This document shows positions 2,389-13,729 of a stretch of 64,000 nucleotides of DNA, piece after piece. Origin of the DNA: Candidatus Latescibacterota bacterium (GTDB taxonomy: Bacteria > Latescibacterota > UBA2968 > GCA-2709665); assembly GCA_965237675.1 (NCBI GenBank), contig OZ250150.1, positions 768,001 to 832,000 on the forward strand. The letters are read 5' to 3'. The notes under the pieces are model-generated. The model was not told the DNA's origin. It made no database searches and saw only the letters and a program-made list of their open reading frames with translations. A program made the position numbers and the translations under genes. How positions within the stretch are numbered: the stretch's first letter is position 1; each line of letters begins with the position of its first letter.

Positions 2389-2937
2389 AGGTGGGTAGTT
2401 TCAGAATACGTTGGGGATCCCCGTCCGGCGACGCGAAACAGGAGGACTCGTGAATTGGGGGAACCGGCAATGGGTGAGACGTTTCTTGCCTTTCCAATAT
2501 GTTAGGATGTCTGCCTGGAAGGTATGTAGATTACACAACTGAACAGCTTTAAATATTCCCCCTTATCAAGGGTGGGCTTGGCGCGATAGACTCACAGATG
2601 GATCGAATAGCATCTCAGTCCGAAACTAAGGATTAATCACGGGGATTTACTGCTTGACCGGGCCGTAGCGCAACACTACACTTTCTTGCATACGCGAACG
2701 TCAGATTCAATTTATGCCATCGCCCCGGAACCACCTAATATCGCTATTGGCGGAACAAATCAGCGAGATCTGCCAACAATGGCGCAGGGGTGCCAAACGA
2801 AATATAGCGGAGGTGGATGCTTTGGTCAATTCAACATCACTGAACCATTAGGCGTGAAGAATCGATCGAAGACAGGGGAAATTACAGGAAGAAGTGCATC
2901 GACTACTGTAAAGCACATAACTGAATGGAGTGATCCA

Positions 2938-3621
2938 ATGCCTATCCAACACACACTCTGGACAATCGACAATCCGCCGGTGGAAGTCGAGACATCCAAG
3001 CTTGCCGATGAGAAACGGCTGGAGGATATGATTGAGTCCAAACTTAGTATCCTTTCAGACGATTGGATGCTGATTGGTCGACAGATAGAAACGGATACTG
3101 GTGGACGAGTCGATCTACTGGCCATTGCATCGGACGCATCTCTAGTGTTGATTGAATTGAAACGCAACAAAACCCCACGCGACGTGATTGCACAGACACT
3201 TGACTACGCCGTTTGGCTGAAAAAATTAGATCCTGAAGATGTAACCGAACTCTATGAAAGATACAATTCCGGCGCGTCGCTCAGTAAGGCCTTTCAAGAT
3301 CGATTTGAAAGGGTCCTCGACGACGACGAAGAGCCAATTAATCATACCCACCAACTCGTCGTGGTCGCGTCAACCCTCGATCCAAGCAGCGAACGCATTG
3401 TAACGTACCTCCAAGGCTGGGGCGTTCCCATCAACGTGCTCACCTTCGAAGTTTTCCGTCATGGCAATACGCAATTCCTCAGCCGGGCCTGGTTGCTACA
3501 ACCGCTGGATACTATGGAATCCGCCACCTCCGGTCCCCGCGAAAGGCTCGCGTGGAACAATGAGTTCTATGCTTGCTTCGGTCACGACGAAAATCGCGAT
3601 TGGGACGAGGCAGTAAAATAT
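2938..3621 (+). pseudogene. NucS/DUF91-like PD-(D/E)xK endonuclease gene, 5' part, interrupted by IS1595 element
   Basis: GRVDLLAI...LVLIELKR nuclease motif and Q-x-x-x-Y (AQTLDY). The frame reads DEAVKY up to the target duplication, then enters the IS end. Confidence 0.85.
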
Positions 3622-3685
3622 GGGAATTATAACCCAAAGTGCCAAAAAGCAAAGCTTGGAAAGAGAAATCGAATAAGAAATCTGC

Positions 3686-3874
3686 CTACGCCCCCCGATT
3701 CTTTAGCCACGCTTTCCACGCCTTTTTCGTTTCCTCCCCCTTGCCTGATTCCACCAACGGCGGATCATCGGGAAAGATCGCCCGGACCGCTTCCTCTATC
3801 TCCGCTTTGCTCGACTGATACTCACTCCCGACAGCCTTGACAACCGGTTTCTTCTTTGCGGTCTCGGAACCCAT
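3686..3874 (-). CDS. Small hypothetical protein (IS passenger)
   Basis: 62-aa ORF with AAGGA-like RBS, directly downstream of the RelE-like gene. Confidence 0.5.
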   Translation of the reverse strand: MGSETAKKKPVVKAVGSEYQSSKAEIEEAVRAIFPDDPPLVESGKGEETKKAWKAWLKNRGA

Positions 3875-3892
3875 AGTGTTTTTCCTTTTTCG

Positions 3893-4228
3893 TTATTTCT
3901 TGTCGTACGCGCCTTGCCGATGGTCCATATCTACGACATAGATTTTCCCCGAAAAACGTTTGTAAAAAATCCGATAGGGCCTCTTTTCAATCCTAAACAT
4001 GGGATCATCAAAAGGTCGTCCTTGTATCTTTTTCGACCCCTTCAGGCTTAGAGGATTTTTGAGACTTTCAATTTTCTCGACGGCAGAACGCCTAACCCTC
4101 GGTTGCAAAGCATCCAAAAATCCCCGGACAGTATCCCGAATGACAATTTCTTGCTCTGCGGGTTCAGGTTGTCCTGTGCCTCCTGTCAGCAAAGGAGCCT
4201 TCCTGGAACCTCCACGTGCTTTATTCAC
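3893..4228 (-). CDS. RelE/ParE-family type II toxin (IS passenger)
   Basis: Pattern FLDAL...VRR...KIESLKNP...SKKIQG...FRIEKRPYRIFY...IYVVDMDHRQGAY matches the RelE fold signature. Confidence 0.75.
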   Translation of the reverse strand: MNKARGGSRKAPLLTGGTGQPEPAEQEIVIRDTVRGFLDALQPRVRRSAVEKIESLKNPLSLKGSKKIQGRPFDDPMFRIEKRPYRIFYKRFSGKIYVVDMDHRQGAYDKK

Positions 4229-4530
4229 CGACTGTCCCTCTTGGCTTTCTTGAAATATCTCTGTGTCTCCTTAGTGGAAAGCATCCTGCTCTTTCCCGTC
4301 CGAAGTTCCTCATCAATTTCTAAAGACCGGGACAGAAACGGATCTTCCTCCTGTTCCACAATAACATCATCCTGACGAGCACCACCCCGCACCCGTGCAA
4401 TGAATCCAAACACAACATCTGTAACGCCCATGACAACCCTCCTTGTCGTTCTCACTCTTATCGACACGGACAGCAACGAATATTCGCCAGAACAGCCAGG
4501 ACAATCATCGCGCCCATCATTGTAATCCAC
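4225..4530 (-). CDS. Putative antitoxin / hypothetical (IS passenger); start uncertain
   Basis: Overlaps the toxin start by 4 nt (GTGA). Acidic C-terminal helix EEDPFLSRSLEIDEELRTGKSRMLS resembles RelB-type antitoxin tails. Confidence 0.5.
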   Translation of the reverse strand: MDYNDGRDDCPGCSGEYSLLSVSIRVRTTRRVVMGVTDVVFGFIARVRGGARQDDVIVEQEEDPFLSRSLEIDEELRTGKSRMLSTKETQRYFKKAKRDSR

Positions 4531-4593
4531 ATTACGAGGACGATCTTATCTGCCCGGCCCTCTTTCATGATCTCTATTCCCTACCTCTCCGCT

Positions 4594-4728
4594 TTAAAAA
4601 CCGCTCCGTGCGCTCCCGTAAGCCCTCAGAATCGTCTTTCTCTTCCTTGTCCGCATCCAACCCTCAACAACCTCTTTGGCGTCCTCTCCCGCCCTTACGC
4701 GCTCTATTAACTCTGTTGCCTTGTTCAT
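4594..4728 (-). CDS. Small hypothetical protein, weak Phd/YefM-like motif (IS passenger)
   Basis: MNKATELIERVRAGED; GGGG-type RBS upstream; first gene after a sigma70-like promoter. Confidence 0.4.
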   Translation of the reverse strand: MNKATELIERVRAGEDAKEVVEGWMRTRKRKTILRAYGSARSGF

Positions 4729-4746
4729 GGTAAACCCCCTGCTAAA

Positions 4747-4775
4747 ATTGTCCAGAAAATTCTTGCGTCTTGTCA
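4747..4775 (-). promoter_or_regulatory. Sigma70-like promoter for the passenger TA operon
   Basis: Minus strand TTGACA, then about 18 bp, then GACAAT. Confidence 0.5.
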
Positions 4776-4863
4776 AGTGAGAATATTATATTGCGCTCGT
4801 TGCCCGACACTCTTTTTACACGGCATAAAGTAAAAGTCCGCCACCAAAAGAGGAGGAAATACC

Positions 4864-5745
4864 ATGCAACATTTATTCGGCTGGCTCTTTATTGCGACCT
4901 TTATTGTCACGATAGTCGGCCTGATAAAACCCTCCGCTTTATGCATAAAACGTCTTGCGACTCGACTTAGAGTCTTCTGGACGGGAACAACTGCATTATT
5001 TGTATTCTTCGTGCTCTTTAGCGCCGTTTCTCCAGAGACGGAAGACGCCAAACAAAGACGATTGGCTGAAGAAACGGAAGCCAAAGATCAAGAACGCGTT
5101 ACGGCTTTGCATGAAGCAGAACAAGCCAGAGCCGATGCAGAAACGCAAGCTAAGATCGAAGCAGAACTGGCCGCCGCCGAAAAGGCCAAAGAACGTGCCC
5201 GAAAAGACAAAGAGACACGAGAAGCCTTAGAACGCAAAGCAAACTTGGAGCGTGAAGCCAAAGAAAAAGCAGAATCCACACCCCATTTTTCCTTTACTGT
5301 AGACCAGTTCATGAATCGGTACACAAAAACAAGAAAAGTGATTGGTATCCGTCCATATTTCCTTCGGGAAACAAAAAAAACTGATTATGACGAATTTCAG
5401 GTGTTGATCCTGCAACCCAACGAAGACTCGCAATGGTACTTCTCAGTAAAAGTATCGAAAATTATAAATACCGTAGTGGCTTTTGAATATGTGCGTTTCA
5501 TCGTGAAAGGCGACGACCCAGGAGAACTCACAAAACAGTTTTTAACGGAAACCGTTGCCTTCATTGTAGGCATTGAGGATTTCGATCTGCCTGATGACAG
5601 ACTTGGGAAAAGACTCGATGATCTTGACTTCAATTCAGTCATGACAGAGGGACAGGAAACAAAAGCCTATGGCGAAAACGTCGTCTACAAAGCCGTATTC
5701 GTAAAAGCCGTATCAATGTTATCGTTGTCCGCAACGCCCCGATAA
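4864..5745 (+). CDS. Membrane-anchored coiled-coil hypothetical protein (IS passenger)
   Basis: GAGGAGG RBS, two N-terminal hydrophobic segments, Ala/Glu/Lys-rich coiled coil, globular C-terminus. Confidence 0.8.
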   Translation: MQHLFGWLFIATFIVTIVGLIKPSALCIKRLATRLRVFWTGTTALFVFFVLFSAVSPETEDAKQRRLAEETEAKDQERVTALHEAEQARADAETQAKIEAELAAAEKAKERARKDKETREALERKANLEREAKEKAESTPHFSFTVDQFMNRYTKTRKVIGIRPYFLRETKKTDYDEFQVLILQPNEDSQWYFSVKVSKIINTVVAFEYVRFIVKGDDPGELTKQFLTETVAFIVGIEDFDLPDDRLGKRLDDLDFNSVMTEGQETKAYGENVVYKAVFVKAVSMLSLSATPR

Positions 5746-6104: not shown

Positions 6105-6225
6105 GGAACTCCTCCCTCGCCTCAAGATATGCCTCGTCGCTCGGATAATTTTCCGGTATAAATATGTCTGTATTCGGAATTCTCGGAATATCCTTTGCTA
6201 CTTCACTTGTTGGCCTCAAACTCAT
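6034..6225 (-). CDS. Small hypothetical protein translationally coupled to the transposase
   Basis: ATGA overlap with the transposase stop; 63 aa. Confidence 0.45.
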   Translation of the reverse strand: MSLRPTSEVAKDIPRIPNTDIFIPENYPSDEAYLEAREEFLKVCAESEARVARGKHPYLTSPE

Positions 6226-7166
6226 GCCGTCAGTTCCTCATATTTAAGCCGCTTGCCGATCATGTCCCGGACGATCCACCCCATCTGGACAATCGTATCG
6301 GCCTCGCGGGCGTTGTGTCTTCCTGCAAACTCCGCAACGTACCGCCCAAGATGTTTTACGCTCAGCCGGTGATACGTTCCGTGATAACCCCTCTTGAGTA
6401 ACGCCCAGAAGGACTCCAAACCGTTCGTAGACGCTTGCCCGTCCACGTACTCCCCAGCACTGTGTTTCACCTGTTTGTGATGCACGCCGGACAAGCCTTG
6501 GTACGCAGTCGCTTCGTCCGTAAACACCTGCGCGCCCGGCGCAACCCTGTGATATACAAACTGCTTCAAAGTCTTACCGTCAACAGCCGCCGCAACCTCA
6601 GCGTCAATACGGCCCGTCTCCCGGTCTTTCGCCCCCACCACCGCCGTCTTGCCTACCGTACCACGTCCGGCGTGGAGTTTCTTTTTGGCATGTTTGTTCT
6701 TCTCTTTCCCGCCGATATACGTTTCATCTACCTCTACCGGCCCGGAGAAGAAATCGCCCTCATTCTCGAAAGCCTTGCGGATGCGGTGCGCCAGGTGCCA
6801 TGCGTTCTTCTGGGCGATGTCGAGATCCCGGTGTAACTTCATTGACGATACACCTTTGATGTTTGTGGTGAAAAGGTAGATCGCAATAAGCCAGTCATGG
6901 TATCCCAATTTGGAAGATTGCATGACCGTTCCAACACGGACGCTAAAACGCTTCCGGCAACCGTTACGTCGGCACCGCAAGGGCATGGACTTATGGGCCG
7001 TCCCGATCTGGATGTTGTCATAACCGCAATAAGGGCACCGGGGGCCTTCCGGCCAGCGGATGCGGGAGAAGAACACTTCCGCCGCTGCATCGTCGGGAAA
7101 CACCTTGAACAGTTTCTTGAGAGAAATCCCTTTTCTGTGATTTTTCCCCGGCCCCTTCGGTCCCAT
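6222..7166 (-). CDS. IS1595-family DDE transposase
   Basis: Zn ribbon CPYCG...CRRNGC, GVSSMKLHRDL HTH, VEVDETY, FTDEATAY, TNGLESFWALLKRG, HLGRYVAEF. Start at MGPKG (7166) or GTG (7181). Confidence 0.95.
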   Translation of the reverse strand: MGPKGPGKNHRKGISLKKLFKVFPDDAAAEVFFSRIRWPEGPRCPYCGYDNIQIGTAHKSMPLRCRRNGCRKRFSVRVGTVMQSSKLGYHDWLIAIYLFTTNIKGVSSMKLHRDLDIAQKNAWHLAHRIRKAFENEGDFFSGPVEVDETYIGGKEKNKHAKKKLHAGRGTVGKTAVVGAKDRETGRIDAEVAAAVDGKTLKQFVYHRVAPGAQVFTDEATAYQGLSGVHHKQVKHSAGEYVDGQASTNGLESFWALLKRGYHGTYHRLSVKHLGRYVAEFAGRHNAREADTIVQMGWIVRDMIGKRLKYEELTA

Positions 7167-7195
7167 CTCATCAACCCCCACAAAGGAGAACTACT

Positions 7196-7441: not shown

Positions 7442-7501
7442 TAGCGTCCATTCCCATCGAACATCACTCCTTTAAACTTGTATCGTCTTTGTTTACAATT
7501 A

Positions 7502-7530
7502 AATATAACGATTTTATTAAGGCTTGTCAA
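7502..7530 (-). promoter_or_regulatory. Inward-facing sigma70 promoter just inside the right TIR
   Basis: Minus strand TTGACA-17 bp-TATATT, pointing toward the transposase. Confidence 0.7.
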
Positions 7531-7570
7531 GCTAATTCTTGGCACTTTGGGTTATAATTCCCTAAAATAT

Positions 7571-7975
7571 GGCTTCATTTCCGGTGGCGGAGGTAAGTGG
7601 TATAGTAGCTCGCTAAAAATGCTGGAGAAGGGTGCCCGTGTCTGGGTAAAGATTCCTGGCAAGGGGTTCGTGGGCGTAGCCCGAATTAAAGGGTCAAGGC
7701 AATCAGCTACGGAGTTTAAGCTTGATGACGGACGTCCAGCGCTTGAAGTGTTGCAGGCGAAACACCACCGCGATGTCGGAGACGACCCCGAATTGATGGA
7801 ATACTTCGTGCCGGTCAAATGGCTCGATACTGTTTCAGTTGGCAAAGCCGTTCGGGAGCCTGGTATGTTTGGCAACCAGAACACTGTCTGTAAACCCAAA
7901 TCGAAAAAATGGCAGCCAACAATCGATAAATTGAAAGACGTTTTCAGAAAGTTTGACGACGAGTTTGAAATGTAA
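7571..7975 (+). pseudogene. NucS/DUF91-like gene, 3' part
   Basis: Continues in frame after the target duplication: (KY)GFISGGGGKWYSSSLKMLEKGARVWVKIPGKGFVGVA. The joined product is 362 aa. Confidence 0.85.
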
Positions 7976-8107: not shown

Positions 8108-8811
8108 GTCAACGGCACCGAAATTGCATACATCGATCTCCAAGACAAACTGGTACCCGCGTTCATCGGTTCGTCATTCACAACCTTGTAGATTGGTGCA
8201 AGTCAAACAAACACGCAATGATAAATGCCTGATAGTATTAAAATTCCACTTGTGATATCGATAGATTTATCGATACTATTTACTGCAAAGGAAAACGAAT
8301 CTGCAACGAAGTTCTGGCACGAGCGATATTTACATGGGTCAGATCCAAAGATTCCTGAAAAGAGCCGTGCGTGGGTTTTTGCTGTTTCTGGGTTTTCAAG
8401 TGCCCTGTAAAGTATACGAAATGGTCGAATTGTGATATTCGTAGTGCAGTCTGCATTATGCGTGTTCGGTGGACGTGTTGTGGATGTTCTGCCATGGCGG
8501 GGGGCGAGGTTTAAGGTGGCGCAACTGAGAATAATTGCCCAAATTGAGCAAACGGAATCCACGCCCCAATAGGAATTACACATTCGCCGCCACGGACCTA
8601 ATGGTGCTGAAAATGAGATTTGGCAAATGCCCTCGGTAGCTACGCTGCACGTCTAACCGATACCCATTGCGGGGAATCGAGGCAATGGGACGCGAACGCA
8701 TTGCGGTTCCTTCTGACGGAGCCGAATCGATGAGCGGACCTGTATCCGTTATGCGATCGAATTCAGCGAAATGTCCGTGTTAGTTGACAGCTACTGGAGA
8801 GAGCCGTTAAG

Positions 8812-9513
8812 ATGCGAATCGAGCCGGAAATCAGTGGCGTAACTGTCGTCTTACTAGGCGATTTCAACCCGGCAATTTTCACACCGGCATGGTTCGCACT
8901 GCACGGCCTCCTCCCCGAAAGCGTCGTCGAGGACGCCGACTTGCAGATCGCCCACCCGCATGTGACGCAATTCGCGGCCGACTGGCTTCGCCTGCACGTC
9001 ACGGCCGCTCGTTTTCTCGTCGAGACCTTGCAGTCACCACACGTTCGCCTGCGCGACCTCGTCGCACGGACATTCAAGGAGTACCTGCACCATACGCCCG
9101 TTAGGGCGTTTGGAATCAACCGTGACGTTCATTTCCGGGTGAAGAGTTTCGCGGAACGGGATCGAATTGGCAGGATACTGGCGCCCGTTAAACCTTGGGG
9201 GACTTGGGGGCACGCTCTCGGACTGGATGGCGAGAATAATGGTATGAGGTCGCTAACGATGTCGCAAATGGACCCCGGGGGAAGGCCATCCGGGGGTAAA
9301 ATCAACATTACGATCCAGCCGTCCAATAAAATTGACAAGGCTCGACCTGGTGTCTACGTGGGAGTCAACGATCACTATGCTATCGAGGATTCCGAGTTGG
9401 AAACGGCCAAACATTTGATGGATCTATTCGATGGCAATTTTGAGACCTCTCTTCAGCGTAGCGACGGCATTATTGACCACATCATGTCCTTAGCAGAGAA
9501 AGAGGAGAAATAG
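8812..9513 (+). CDS. Hypothetical protein (possibly TIGR04255-like), gene 1 of three-gene operon
   Basis: GGAGA RBS; conserved-looking VVLLGDFNPAIFTPAWF, HTPVRAFGIN and VNDHY motifs. Family assignment is from recall only. Confidence 0.8.
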   Translation: MRIEPEISGVTVVLLGDFNPAIFTPAWFALHGLLPESVVEDADLQIAHPHVTQFAADWLRLHVTAARFLVETLQSPHVRLRDLVARTFKEYLHHTPVRAFGINRDVHFRVKSFAERDRIGRILAPVKPWGTWGHALGLDGENNGMRSLTMSQMDPGGRPSGGKINITIQPSNKIDKARPGVYVGVNDHYAIEDSELETAKHLMDLFDGNFETSLQRSDGIIDHIMSLAEKEEK

Positions 9514-9516
9514 CTC

Positions 9517-10122
9517 ATGTTGCCTGCGGCTCGATCCACAGCGATCCAACACGCCAATTGGCATGAAGGCCTGACTGATATTGATGAAGATGCCGTGAGT
9601 CAAAGCGTCGTCCCGAATGCGCACCAAGCCATCCGCTCCGCCGTAGAGCAAAGCACGAACTCAGCGACAACAAGCGTCAATGCCCAAGATCCGGAAGCGG
9701 TGACGATGCCACTATTTAACAATCGTGAACAGGCCGGCGATCTACTCTCCGGTATAGTTTTGCTGCTCGAACCGCAAGAACACCGTCCTGCGCCTGTGAC
9801 CTTCCACGCCTTACAAGAATGGGAAGGCTACGTCACTGAGATTAAGGAAACGGAGTTCACAGCACGCCTGACCGACCTGACGTCCGGGGCGAATTATGCG
9901 AGCGAAGAAGCGAATATACCGCTGGACGAAATATCTGAAGACGACGCGGCCAAGATGCAGGTCGGTAGCATCTTCCGCTGGGTAATCGGCTACGAGCGCA
10001 GGGGGGGTTCGAAAAAGCGGGTTTCCCAGATCGTGTTGCGCGACCTTCCCATGATCACGAAGTCCGACCTGCGAGATGGGCGGGAATGGGCACATAGTAT
10101 CGTAGCGACTTTCCAGCAATGA
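9517..10122 (+). CDS. Hypothetical protein, gene 2 of three-gene operon
   Basis: Starts 3 bp after gene 1. Low-complexity N-terminus, then a beta-rich domain LQEWEGYVTEI...FTARLTD...GSIFRWVIGY. Confidence 0.8.
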   Translation: MLPAARSTAIQHANWHEGLTDIDEDAVSQSVVPNAHQAIRSAVEQSTNSATTSVNAQDPEAVTMPLFNNREQAGDLLSGIVLLLEPQEHRPAPVTFHALQEWEGYVTEIKETEFTARLTDLTSGANYASEEANIPLDEISEDDAAKMQVGSIFRWVIGYERRGGSKKRVSQIVLRDLPMITKSDLRDGREWAHSIVATFQQ

Positions 10123-11213
10123 CGGATGCCGCCACATCGTTAGACCGGCCGGGTGAGGACGAGATTGAGGTTGTTTTACTTGGACCCGGTTATGGCGAAA
10201 GCATCGTCCTGCATACAGGCCATGGTAGTTGGGTGATCGTTGATTCCTGCATCAACACCGAAGGAAAACCACGCGCGCTAGAGTACTTAGACAGCATTGG
10301 TGTCAACGCGGGGCAACAGGTTGATTTGGTTGTAGCGACGCACTGGCACGACGATCATATACGTGGGATGGCAACCCTCGTCGAGGTCTGCAGCAGGGCT
10401 GACTTCTGTTGTGCAAACACACTCCTCAACAAGGAGATTCTCGCAGCCATCGACGCTTTGGAGGCACGTCACCTAACCGTGGAAGGTTCAGGCGTTCGAG
10501 AAATCTACCACATTCTTAAATGGCTTCAGTCGAAGTCGTTTCGACCGAAGTTTGCGTCGGCCAATCGAAAGATTCATTCACAAGGCAAGTGTGAAATCTG
10601 GTCTTTGTCGCCGAGTGACGCCGCGTTTCAGAGTTTTCTGCAAACGGTCGGCGCTCTATTCCCCAGAGAAGGTGAGACGAAGACCCGGATTCCATCCATT
10701 TCCCCGAACGATTTTTCCGTCGTCCTGTGGATCGATATTGACGATGTTGTCGTCCTGTTAGGATCGGATCTGGAAAGAAATGGATGGATTGAAATACTGA
10801 ATAGCAGGGAACGTCCGAAAGAGAAAGTGTCGGTATTTAAGGTTCCACACCACGGATCAGAGGGCGCGGATGAACCGAAGGTGTGGAAGAGTATGCTTGC
10901 GTCAGATCCGTACGCACTCCTCGCACCGTGGCGTAGAGGCAACCGCACCTTACCCAGCCAAAAGGATGTACAGAGGATACTTTCTTATACTCCAAACGCC
11001 TATGCGAGCGCGAAAGGGGATCGGACTGCTCGTTCTCCCAGATACGCCAATCGTGCGGTTGCCCGAACTATCCGAAGTACCGGAATCAAGCTTCGAGAGT
11101 TGGATATGTCGCCAGGCGCGATTCGCCTGCGGCGACCTATCAATTCGAGTAAACGCTGGCAGGTCGAGACGTTCGGAGCCGCCTGCCATCTCGAAGACTT
11201 TGCGGTTGAGTGA
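10119..11213 (+). CDS. MBL-fold metallo-hydrolase (ComEC/Rec2-like putative nuclease), gene 3 of operon
   Basis: GYGESI, IVDSC, THWHDDH (HxHxDH), LLGSD and KVPHHGS motifs; ATGA overlap with gene 2. Confidence 0.9.
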   Translation: MTDAATSLDRPGEDEIEVVLLGPGYGESIVLHTGHGSWVIVDSCINTEGKPRALEYLDSIGVNAGQQVDLVVATHWHDDHIRGMATLVEVCSRADFCCANTLLNKEILAAIDALEARHLTVEGSGVREIYHILKWLQSKSFRPKFASANRKIHSQGKCEIWSLSPSDAAFQSFLQTVGALFPREGETKTRIPSISPNDFSVVLWIDIDDVVVLLGSDLERNGWIEILNSRERPKEKVSVFKVPHHGSEGADEPKVWKSMLASDPYALLAPWRRGNRTLPSQKDVQRILSYTPNAYASAKGDRTARSPRYANRAVARTIRSTGIKLRELDMSPGAIRLRRPINSSKRWQVETFGAACHLEDFAVE

Positions 11214-11460: not shown

Positions 11461-11497
11461 AAAAACAGCCGATCTCCTTTGGATCGGCCTTTTTTAT
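11461..11497. terminator. Bidirectional intrinsic terminator
   Basis: AAAAACA-GCCGATC-loop-GATCGGC-CTTTTTT between convergent genes. Confidence 0.7.
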
Positions 11498-12775: not shown

Positions 12776-13729
12776 CTACAACAGGACGCCGGTCTGGTAG
12801 TCCTTTTCCTGATTGAAGTACTCTTCCACGCTGAAGTAGCGGGTTCCCGTGTCGCACAGAATCGTGACAACGTTCTGACCCGGGTCGAGGCGTTCAGCGA
12901 CCTGTCGGGCCGCGACCACGGCCGCGCCGGAAGAGATACCCACGAGGAGAGACTCCTCTCTGGCCAGGGCCTGGGTCATATTGAAGGCCGCGCGGTCCTC
13001 CACGGAGATAACGTCATCGATGATGCCGCGGTTGAGAATGGCAGGGATAAACCCCGCGCCGATCCCTTCGATGGCGTGGGGGCCGTGCGATTTCCCGCTG
13101 AGCACCGCCGAGGCGGCCGGCTCGACGGCGACGATGCGGACGTTCGGAATGGCGCCCTTGAGGGCCTCGCCCGCGCCGGTTATCGTGCCGCCGGTGCCGA
13201 CACCGGCGACAAACGCCGCGATATTTCCTTCCACCGTCTCCAGGATCTCGGGACCGGTGGTCTTCCGGTGAACGTCCGGGTTCGCCGGGTTTTCGAATTG
13301 CCGGAGTTCGATGCAGTTGGGGTTCTGCGCAACGATCTCCCTCGCTTTTCGTACGGCGCCCGCCATGTCCTGGTCGCCTGGCGTCAGCATGACTTCCGCG
13401 CCATAGCGGGTCACGAGAGCGCGCCGCTCGAAGCTCATTGTCTCAGGCATCGTGAGAATGAGACGGTAGTTGAACTGTGCGCAAATCATCGCCAGTCCGA
13501 TGCCGGTATTTCCACTGGTAGCCTCCACGATGGCCATCCCGCGTTTCAGCCTGCCGGTTCGTTCGGCATCCCGGATCATACTCAGGGCGATGCGGTCCTT
13601 CACGCTGCCGCCCGGATTAAGGTATTCGAGCTTGGCGAGAATCGCGGCGGCGCCGGGCGGCGAGAGATTGTTGAGCCGGACCATCGGGGTCCGGCCGATG
13701 AGGTCCGCGATCCGGTTGTGCATTGCCAT
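12776..13729 (-). CDS. cysK: Cysteine synthase A
   Basis: IGRTPMV, KLEYLNPGGSVKDR (PLP lysine), EATSGNTG, GVGTGGT, GISSGA. Confidence 0.95.
   Translation of the reverse strand: MAMHNRIADLIGRTPMVRLNNLSPPGAAAILAKLEYLNPGGSVKDRIALSMIRDAERTGRLKRGMAIVEATSGNTGIGLAMICAQFNYRLILTMPETMSFERRALVTRYGAEVMLTPGDQDMAGAVRKAREIVAQNPNCIELRQFENPANPDVHRKTTGPEILETVEGNIAAFVAGVGTGGTITGAGEALKGAIPNVRIVAVEPAASAVLSGKSHGPHAIEGIGAGFIPAILNRGIIDDVISVEDRAAFNMTQALAREESLLVGISSGAAVVAARQVAERLDPGQNVVTILCDTGTRYFSVEEYFNQEKDYQTGVLL

Follow-up and report, generated by a model that had tools for sequence, protein, structure and literature searches.

Three tightly packed genes at the edge of a stretch of low guanine-plus-cytosine (GC) content raise the question of whether they work together and, if so, whether they constitute a bacterial defence system of their own. 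The genes, which we call g1, g2, and g3, occupy positions 8812-11213 of a 64,000-nucleotide stretch of DNA (contig OZ250150.1, positions 768,001 to 832,000 of the forward strand, assembly GCA_965237675.1) from a Candidatus Latescibacterota bacterium; this whole stretch is referred to below as the window. An earlier note, made from the sequence alone, had singled the operon out as a candidate defence or toxin-antitoxin-type system with a metallo-beta-lactamase (MBL) nuclease-like third gene. Our results support the view that the trio is a real, horizontally spread cassette, and we read it, with moderate confidence, as a self-contained, nucleic-acid-targeting defence cassette in which a g1-g2 pair would control g3, a putative DNase; its usual home would be a slot within the system that PADLOC calls Hma, and the copy in the window would be an orphan. 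The open reading frames (ORFs) in question, with lengths in amino acids (aa), are the following:

8812-9513, + strand: g1, 233 aa, intact ORF
9517-10122, + strand: g2, 201 aa, intact ORF
10119-11213, + strand: g3, 364 aa, intact ORF

The genes are co-directional, g1 and g2 being separated by a 3-bp gap (the junction reads 'TAG ctc ATG') and g2 and g3 overlapping by 4 bp ('ATGA'), so that coordinates and junction sequences agree with the layout first described. The trio occurs once in the genome, and its arrangement is conserved well beyond it. A g1-seeded scan of one genome per species returned 141 relatives of g1, and the 80 loci kept from it underlie all counts out of 80 given here. Throughout these 80 loci g2 and g3 lie directly downstream of g1 in the same order (tblastn), and 70 of them carry a full-length, tightly spaced trio. 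Their phylum labels include Latescibacterota, Gemmatimonadota, Acidobacteriota, and Alpha- and Gammaproteobacteria, with Binatia, Dehalococcoidia, Spirochaetia, Nitrospirales, Rhodothermales, and others among the further labels, and the trio proteins are 51-77% identical across phyla. Over the 70 tight loci, identities to the g1 and g3 of the window co-vary (Spearman 0.66); those of g2 show no co-variation with either, a comparison rendered uninformative by the differing spans of the high-scoring segment pairs. A metagenome search seeded with g2 led to the same arrangement: 38 of 39 loci have g1 and/or g3 at the expected place, each missing partner lying beyond a contig end, and the remaining locus has a PtuA-like gene instead. 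These metagenomic loci include versions just 36-44% identical to the window proteins. Because the order is kept in 80/80 loci, the spacing is tight in 70/80, and 38/39 g2-seeded loci concur, the arrangement is far beyond chance, and gene order does hold across phyla.

A distant trio, whose proteins are 30%, 38%, and 30% identical to those of the window, lies on a plasmid of a cultured member of the Bacteroidota, Adhaeribacter swui (NZ_CP055155.1, record positions 3121-5471), where the genes are annotated as hypothetical, hypothetical, and MBL fold metallo-hydrolase; it adjoins a recombinase-family gene and a DEAD/DEAH helicase. The trio is present in one of 72,556 plasmid records, and tblastn of g1, the C-terminal domain of g2, and g3 against 50,697 phage records gave no match, despite the PHROG match of g3 and the virus-rich ESM Atlas lead for g2, both given below.

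Judged by its sequence, g3 is a soluble MBL-fold hydrolase of the ComEC-nuclease type. Pfam Lactamase_B (PF00753; 27.7 bits against a cut-off of 22.7, E 3.1e-6) makes it a member of the superfamily, and it has the HxHxDH motif together with the downstream metal-binding Asp and His: all 28 aligned homologues share H75-W-H77-D78-D79-H80, D217, and H244-H245-G246 without exception. In a profile search of all PDB sequences, the closest solved sequences are ComEC MBL domains (9ic4_A, 4.9e-10; 30bt_A, 3.8e-8), which agrees with the original description of gene 3 as MBL nuclease-type. An NCBIfam scan found no membrane or competence domain, and the ComEC equivalog TIGR00361 reaches 27.3 bits against a cut-off of 190, with only residues 195-256 aligning, to the C-terminal part of the model; As first described, g3 thus has ComEC-type motifs outside any membrane or competence context. 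Its PADLOC matches are partial: to the LmuA-type MBL (3e-16, spanning residues 16-176 only), RTasMBL (6e-15), PDC-M48B (7.6e-7 and 9.4e-7), and Avs1a (1.3e-4), and PHROG gives phrog_28593 (1.7e-33). All NCBIfam defence equivalogs are far under cut-off for g3; Avs1a (NF041809) scores 22.3 bits against 420, and the 6A-MBL protein (NF058524) 25 bits against 220, with only residues 65-90 aligning. Aligned with the ComEC domain, g3 has about 40 additional residues in the stretch that leads from HxHxDH to the catalytic Asp, and this segment does not behave as a variable loop but is well conserved. Since characterised defence MBLs, themselves relatives of ComEC, are described in the accessible text of two sources as zinc-dependent double-stranded DNA nucleases (PMC12799240; bioRxiv 10.1101/2025.11.14.688446), g3 is most likely a metal-dependent DNase and the presumed effector, a role also suggested by its invariant catalytic residues, by ComEC as its nearest solved relative, and by its kinship to the MBL models linked to Lamassu, DRT, and Avs1.

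The partners carry no such label: g1 and g2 are without a name in Pfam, NCBIfam, and PADLOC, in line with the initial failure to recognise the trio as a named system. g1 has no match in Pfam, NCBIfam, PADLOC, or PHROG, and a profile search of PDB sequences gave only matches with E of at least 0.4. Its homologues with E<=0.001 number 706 in a 90% cluster library, without Pfam domains or informative names (the 120 listed are 61-100% identical), and 2310 clusters fall under the same threshold in a 50% representative library. Residues N19, P20, I22, F23, T24, P25, W27, and F28 are invariant in 26 of 26 aligned sequences, many invariant residues are polar (H94, H107, D187, H188, H223, S147, S171, S226), and the translation has zero cysteines. 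In the structure model, g1 adopts an internally pseudo-symmetric alpha+beta fold of two layers (predicted local distance difference test score, pLDDT, 81.9; predicted template modelling score, pTM, 0.81). Foldseek against the PDB returned AdoMetDC, TBP, and RepD-type matches (E 1e-5, TM 0.33, that is, about 0.3), and the top VIA match was the McsB kinase domain, of the guanidino-kinase type (Z 7.8); scores of this size are commonly seen and do not establish homology, and we therefore rejected a function for g1 drawn from its fold. The ESM Atlas placed g1 near a cluster auto-named 'TIGR04255 family protein' (0.97), but membership of that family finds no support: g1 and 8 diverse homologues have no NCBIfam match, and hhalign against the genome's true TIGR04255 gene gave a probability of 0.6%, from an alignment of low diversity (Neff 1.8). 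That true family member (G000:C1:608074-608766, equivalent to 1483-2196 on the - strand of locus L179; 36.3 bits, cut-off 30) is flanked on one side by a co-directional 211-aa ORF and on the other by a divergent 454-aa ORF that by eye resembles a DDE transposase.

The N-terminal ~90 residues of g2 are variable and predicted to be disordered, and its C-terminal ~110 residues are conserved and modelled as a small beta-barrel, OB/cold-shock-like, with a helix (pLDDT ~81-95 over residues 91-200, under 50 for 1-34 and 46-82). E101, W102, G104, F153, W155, I157, and G158 are invariant in 34 of 34 aligned sequences; the motifs originally quoted for all three genes are present and conserved in the alignments. 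Pfam, NCBIfam, PADLOC, and PHROG offer only two marginal matches for g2, phrog_29493 (E 0.003) and PD-T7-1 (0.037), and a profile search of PDB sequences offers none. VIA places the barrel closest to the EF-P/eIF5A OB domain (Z 7.4, root-mean-square deviation 2.5, 63 aligned), followed by Unr cold-shock domains, SSB, and PriB, and the Foldseek matches are weak (E 0.012 and above); from these we take an OB/cold-shock-like arrangement only, and set aside a function based on fold. The ESM Atlas lead for g2 is a virus-rich cluster (0.93).

The proposed pairing of genes 1 and 2 is supported by a controlled complex prediction and by one natural fusion. The prediction used three chains, g1, g2 (residues 88-201), and g3, with custom alignments, for which the calibration counts hold only roughly: g1 against g2 plus g3 scored 0.70, the best of 3 controls scored 0.33, and that level was attained by 58 of 80 complexes of solved structure and by 2 of 110 mismatched pairs. 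The runs concur in at least 83% of contacts, with partner pLDDT of at least 83, and nearly all confident contacts join g1 (residues 4-9, 73-93, 200-211) to g2 (93-101, 154-183), g3 contributing only residues 117, 119, and 121 in the model. The fusion protein (P0122, 438 aa; n=1) has g1 at 1-230 and the g2 C-domain at 308-438. Model and fusion together suggest g1 as a binding partner of the OB-like domain of g2. The further idea of a toxin-antitoxin-chaperone (TAC) logic finds no support: no family of chaperones, SecB-like ones included, or of antitoxins is matched by g1 or g2. SecB is also absent from the fold-search matches listed, by itself no decisive sign.

Where the trio resides is a new point beyond what the earlier note contained: it belongs to a variable slot of the Hma system. 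In PADLOC, Hma comprises the helicase HmaA, the methylase HmaB, and the ATPase HmaC (PMC8565338), and the system was re-described in 2025 as a DUF499-centred BREX-related (BR) one (bioRxiv 10.1101/2025.10.09.681413), both according to the accessible text of these papers. Simple ORF calls in the flanks of the 80 loci, once clustered, yielded three recurrent neighbours:

Upstream, ~1000 aa: DUF499 AAA+ ATPase, HmaC (PADLOC 8.6e-99; Pfam DUF499)
Directly upstream, ~160 aa: DUF7680 protein (PF24728, 2.6e-44)
Directly downstream, ~980 aa: DUF1156 N6-methyltransferase, HmaB (PADLOC 3.2e-74)

An SNF2 helicase gene comes after the methylase. When Hma genes were sought by tblastn within 6 kb of the trio, using the proteins of one related locus (L060), at least one component was found beside it in 33/80 loci (DUF7680 in 32/80, HmaC in 25/80, HmaB in 23/80, the HmaA N-terminus in 14/80, HmaC and HmaB both in 20/80). 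In these 33 loci the trio lies within or beside a DUF499-centred system, in a slot that runs from the DUF7680 gene to the methyltransferase. The same slot in sister genomes of the window's phylum is occupied by Menshen (NsnA 2.5e-120, NsnB 2e-104, NsnC 9.4e-112), Septu (PtuA 2.3e-110, PtuB 7.2e-55), the PDC-S28 helicase (1.3e-84), or a PIN + DUF4325 set, and it can hold two or three occupants in tandem together with the trio. These contents fit the frequent co-occurrence of Hma with Septu type I, as given in the accessible part of the PADLOC paper (PMC8565338). Between stacked cassettes lie short pieces of core genes, from the HmaB N-terminus, the DUF7680 C-terminus, and in one case the HmaC C-terminus, which we infer to be scars of recombination between loci with different cassettes. 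These fragments lie as follows:

L103, 10838-10909 and 10958-11071 (directly before g1), and 13537-13715: gene fragments between cassettes
L104, 10802-11127: gene fragments between cassettes
L102, 10050-10184: gene fragments between cassettes

In locus L007 (7272-10055), a deletion has fused g3 with the methylase: g3 breaks off near residue 128, and a single 927-aa frame runs on into HmaB from its residue 230.

Among the trio genes, g2 is the one that also turns up in other company. It is more widespread than g1, and a full-length homologue stands directly upstream of PtuA in three loci:

L104, 7943-10797: g2 + PtuA + PtuB, within an Hma locus
L170, 8045-10656: g2 + PtuA + PtuB, free-standing
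L181, 5001-5972: g2 + PtuA-like gene, at a contig end

g2 may thus be an accessory common to two different effector modules, the MBL trio and Septu. One locus (L169) pairs g2 with g3, g1 being absent, and ORFs that hold only the C-domain (about residues 95-200) are neighbours of DUF7680 or HmaB in three loci that combine Hma with Menshen:

L171, 8035-8340: C-domain-only g2 ORF
L176, 8149-8451: C-domain-only g2 ORF
L177, 8023-8328: C-domain-only g2 ORF

Such ORFs may be leftovers or may encode a shortened version that still functions. Further ones occur in L173, L174, and L178, and the C-domain matches of one genus have internal stops in some genomes.

The window copy appears, from its surroundings, to be the orphan of an Hma locus, because a DUF7680 pseudogene stands just upstream of g1 and the Hma core genes are absent, the other genes having been lost and the 2.4 kb of the trio still being open:

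8492-8730, + strand: DUF7680 pseudogene, two in-frame stops, truncated after ~60 codons, just upstream of g1

The relic was identified by tblastn (E 1.6e-7) and by blastx against 18 DUF7680 proteins from related loci, of which the best is 53% identical over 66 aa (E 3e-16) with the stops inside the alignment; tblastn found none of HmaA, HmaB, or HmaC in the 64-kb window, and DUF7680 is present as this relic only. The genome's sole DUF499 ATPase is ~1 Mb off, 27% identical to the HmaC of L060, and without a trio. This distant gene (G000:C1:1804924-1806117; locus L083, 6028-17151) is followed by two ~1100-aa ORFs, and the locus is probably another BR/Hma-type system, lacking DUF7680 and the trio. 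Whether the trio depends on Hma can be gauged from its distribution: 47/80 loci have no Hma gene within 6 kb, and among 168 genomes of the phylum, g1 is found in 28, g2 in 40, and DUF7680 in 15, a comparison of the genome lists showing g1 and DUF7680 together in only 7. The Hma-free loci and the small number of genomes with both favour autonomy of the trio, as counts limited by incomplete metagenome-assembled genomes and by possible other DUF499 types.

The immediate surroundings in the window agree with the lower-GC island first described: GC is 0.44-0.55 over ~2.5-11.5 kb and 0.60-0.63 in the flanks, and the trio forms the right-hand end of the low-GC stretch. The remaining features of interest are:

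2686-3840, + strand: 384-aa ORF, NucS_C match (E 1e-4, 22.8 bits), within the low-GC stretch
6222-7181, - strand: IS1595-type transposase (Pfam 9.8e-40), within the low-GC stretch
7478-7975, + strand: 165-aa ORF, PADLOC candidate PDC-S11 (E 2.7e-47), within the low-GC stretch
11468-11488, both strands: hairpin with T-runs on both strands (consensus scan), 255 bp past the g3 stop

The NucS-like neighbour of the earlier note is thus there as a match, albeit a weak one, its 22.8 bits falling short of the cut-off of 24. A 111-aa ORF (3893-4228, - strand) is RelE/ParE-like by eye only. The 165-aa ORF, located between the IS1595 transposase and the DUF7680 relic, covers only the C-terminal third of PDC-S11 (positions 226-355 of 358) and, from this alignment, may be a piece or a shortened version of a defence candidate; it was rejected as a member of the unit, none of the 80 related loci carrying it. 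The hairpin is a possible, weak candidate for the operon end: terminator-like sites in the region number 5, against 4.3 +/- 2.5 in shuffles, which is no excess, and the combined promoter and terminator consensus scan of the region did no better than shuffles.

On the reading that we favour, g1 and the OB-like domain of g2 would form a heterodimer that senses infection, perhaps via nucleic acid bound by the OB-like domain, and/or restrains g3; the heterodimer would then release or recruit g3, which would act as a metal-dependent DNase of the ComEC/MBL type. The cassette would usually reside in the DUF499 'Hma' system, in the slot bounded by the DUF7680 gene and the N6-methyltransferase, where it would alternate or stack with Septu, Menshen, and PDC-S28 and be exchanged by scar-leaving recombination. 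It would also persist alone, as in the window, where DUF7680 appears to have decayed and the ATPase, methylase, and helicase to have been lost while the trio stayed intact. We propose a non-protease g1-g2 gate because known MBLs are opened by proteases and none is recognisable here. Several observations weigh against this reading as a whole. In ten of the 80 loci the trio is cut short, interrupted, or loosely spaced (a contig end accounts for one of the ten), and the window trio could therefore be a relic that has not yet decayed. The 47/80 loci without Hma genes have mostly metabolic or housekeeping nearest neighbours, among them acetate kinase, CCG/4Fe-4S, rhamnose mutarotase, enolase superfamily, and tRNA synthetase genes. 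A scan of 150 of their flanking ORFs (simple ORF picks, up to two per side, those >900 aa left out) matched 38 PADLOC families, none by more than 2 of the 150, which lends island enrichment no support. Free-standing copies are hence not in classic defence islands, and for them the claim of a defence-island setting is weak. Moreover, a control in which g3 was swapped for an unrelated protein still scored 0.33, and the few confident g3 contacts mean that control of g3 by g1-g2 is not directly captured in the model; the modelled fold matches of g1 and g2 fall short of the level that implies homology; and PADLOC v2 has no g1 or g2 model, its matches to g3 being partial.

How else, then, might the same locus be explained? 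The trio might be non-autonomous, serving the DUF7680-type Hma/BR system as an accessory effector arm whose nuclease is licensed or recruited by the DUF499 ATPase, DUF7680, or the helicase, which would make the window copy a functionless relic, yet one without stops. Such an arm would account for the 20/80 loci where a single co-directional array runs from HmaC-DUF7680 through the trio to HmaB, for the DUF7680 pseudogene that the window retains, and for the 10/80 copies that are truncated, interrupted, or loosely spaced, and auxiliary nucleases embedded in BR loci are on record in the accessible text of bioRxiv 10.1101/2025.10.09.681413. We nevertheless think it unlikely, given that 47/80 loci have no Hma gene within 6 kb, that a DUF7680 match exists in only 7 of the 28 g1-positive genomes of the phylum, that the window's DUF7680 has stops and the 2.4-kb trio none, and that the slot also houses Septu and Menshen, separate PADLOC systems, so that its residents need not depend on Hma. 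The trio might also be a selfish, toxin-antitoxin-like addiction module, in which g3 would be the toxin and g1-g2 the antidote, and which would persist by post-segregational killing with no role in phage defence. Small, tightly overlapping genes, cross-phylum spread, single inserts among housekeeping genes, occurrence on a plasmid, and a predicted g1-g2 complex would all suit it, but no antitoxin or DNA-binding repressor family is matched, the trio is rare on plasmids (1/72,556 records) and absent from 50,697 phage records, and the link to the Hma slot, common to Septu and Menshen, is more specific than generic addiction needs; we regard it as quite improbable.

Another possibility is that g3 is a gated pro-nuclease like HamM, the Avs-linked MBLs, and CanC, and that g1, or g1-g2, is a new activating protease which cleaves it on infection. 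The precedent is clear from the accessible text of PMC12799240 and bioRxiv 10.1101/2025.11.14.688446, in which characterised defence MBLs are zymogens that a partner of the trypsin-like, caspase-like, or subtilisin-like type cuts open, Canu among them with three genes and the nuclease last; the invariant polar residues of g1 (H94, H107, D187, H188, H223, S147, S171, S226) would suit such a role, and the ~40 residues that g3 has beyond the ComEC domain between HxHxDH and the catalytic Asp could be read along the same lines. Yet g1 and g2 match no protease family, g1 lacks cysteine and so is not a caspase, its fold matches (AdoMetDC, TBP, guanidino-kinase-like) are none of them proteases, the extra g3 segment is well conserved instead of a variable loop, and g3 reaches 22.3 bits of the 420 required by Avs1a, all of which leads us to consider an activating protease very unlikely. 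Housekeeping DNA uptake or processing, with a ComEC-like nuclease and an OB-fold single-strand binder, has in its favour the ComEC nuclease domains as closest solved relatives of g3 and the OB-like barrel of g2; it sits so poorly with the patchy distribution (28/168 phylum genomes), the single genome copy within a low-GC island with a transposase, the 51-77% identity across phyla that points to horizontal spread, the lack of a membrane or competence domain, and the embedding in defence loci that we give it hardly any credence. The self-contained defence cassette thus remains our preferred reading. It can be extended into a broader and more speculative proposal, rather doubtful as a whole, in which g1-g2 would be a non-proteolytic gate or sensor of a ComEC-type DNase, g2 would act as a portable adaptor with an OB fold, at the service of Septu too (in 3 loci it directly precedes PtuA), and would plug interchangeable cassettes into the DUF499 (Hma/BR) platform, and the DUF7680-methylase slot would be a recombination-driven exchange site marked by scars.

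If the trio does protect against phages, it would be a defence module with an MBL nuclease controlled without a protease, widening the known modes of licensing. The DUF7680-methylase slot acts like a small defence hotspot with visible scars that could be mined for further cassettes, and its contents bear on how composite immune loci get assembled; g2 recurs beside Septu as well as in the MBL trio, and one may ask whether sensor or adaptor parts are shared. The copy on the Adhaeribacter swui plasmid, 30% identical, offers a practical starting point in a cultured and non-pathogenic carrier.

It remains to place the trio among known systems. With HamM/HamMAB, Avs1/2/4-MBL, Lamassu-MBL and DRT-MBL, and CanC it shares a soluble MBL with ComEC motifs, encoded by a separate gene in a small defence operon, and with Canu, as far as the accessible description goes, three genes with the nuclease last. 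It differs from these protease-MBL modules in having no trypsin-, caspase-, or subtilisin-like protease (Pfam, NCBIfam, and PADLOC scans of g1 and g2), its partners being instead a cysteine-free alpha+beta protein and an OB-like protein, neither with a family match. Those modules are also marked by two disordered linkers that block the active site and bear cleavage sites; what the g3 sequence shows on this point is a conserved ~40-residue extra segment relative to ComEC. In Lamassu, the SMC-type ATPase LmuB adjoins the effector, whereas neither g1 nor g2 matches an SMC or ATPase family. PDC-M48 is a pair of PDC-M48B and PDC-M48A; g3 gives weak partial matches to the former, and apart from g2 with PD-T7-1, g1 and g2 match no PADLOC partner model at E<=0.1. 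The C-terminal MBL domain of ComEC itself has the HxHxDH and ...FKVPHHGS... blocks in common with g3, which is however soluble, without competence or membrane domains, and ~100 residues longer.

The likeness to Hma is one of position, the trio lying within or beside it in 33/80 relatives and the window keeping a DUF7680 relic, whereas the window lacks the DUF499 ATPase, DUF1156 methyltransferase, and SNF2 helicase, and the trio stands outside the three core genes. The auxiliary effectors embedded in BREX/BR loci are likewise inserted co-directionally between core genes of a methylation system and alternate with known systems. In the main text of the BR study the auxiliary nucleases are HNH, HKD, PD-(D/E)XK, TOPRIM/OLD, HEPN, PIN, and Schlafen, and the terms 'metallo', 'MBL', 'lactamase', 'ComEC', and 'DUF7680' are absent from that main text (bioRxiv 10.1101/2025.10.09.681413); 'DUF499', 'Hma', and 'BREX' are absent from the accessible text of the protease-effector preprint, modularity-screen papers mention MBL, in their accessible text, only in the context of HamMAB or 6A-MBL, and a literature search for 'DUF7680' or 'TIGR04255' gave no match. 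Within the main texts of the literature on BR, MBL-protease effectors, and modularity screens, as far as accessible, we found no description of the trio, nor, in the accessible sources, of duplicated core-gene fragments (HmaB N-terminus, DUF7680 C-terminus) at cassette borders, a feature of the trio slot. What is already known, then, is the use of a ComEC-type MBL effector in defence cassettes; what is new is its company, the partners g1 and g2, and the defined slot in which the three genes are at home.

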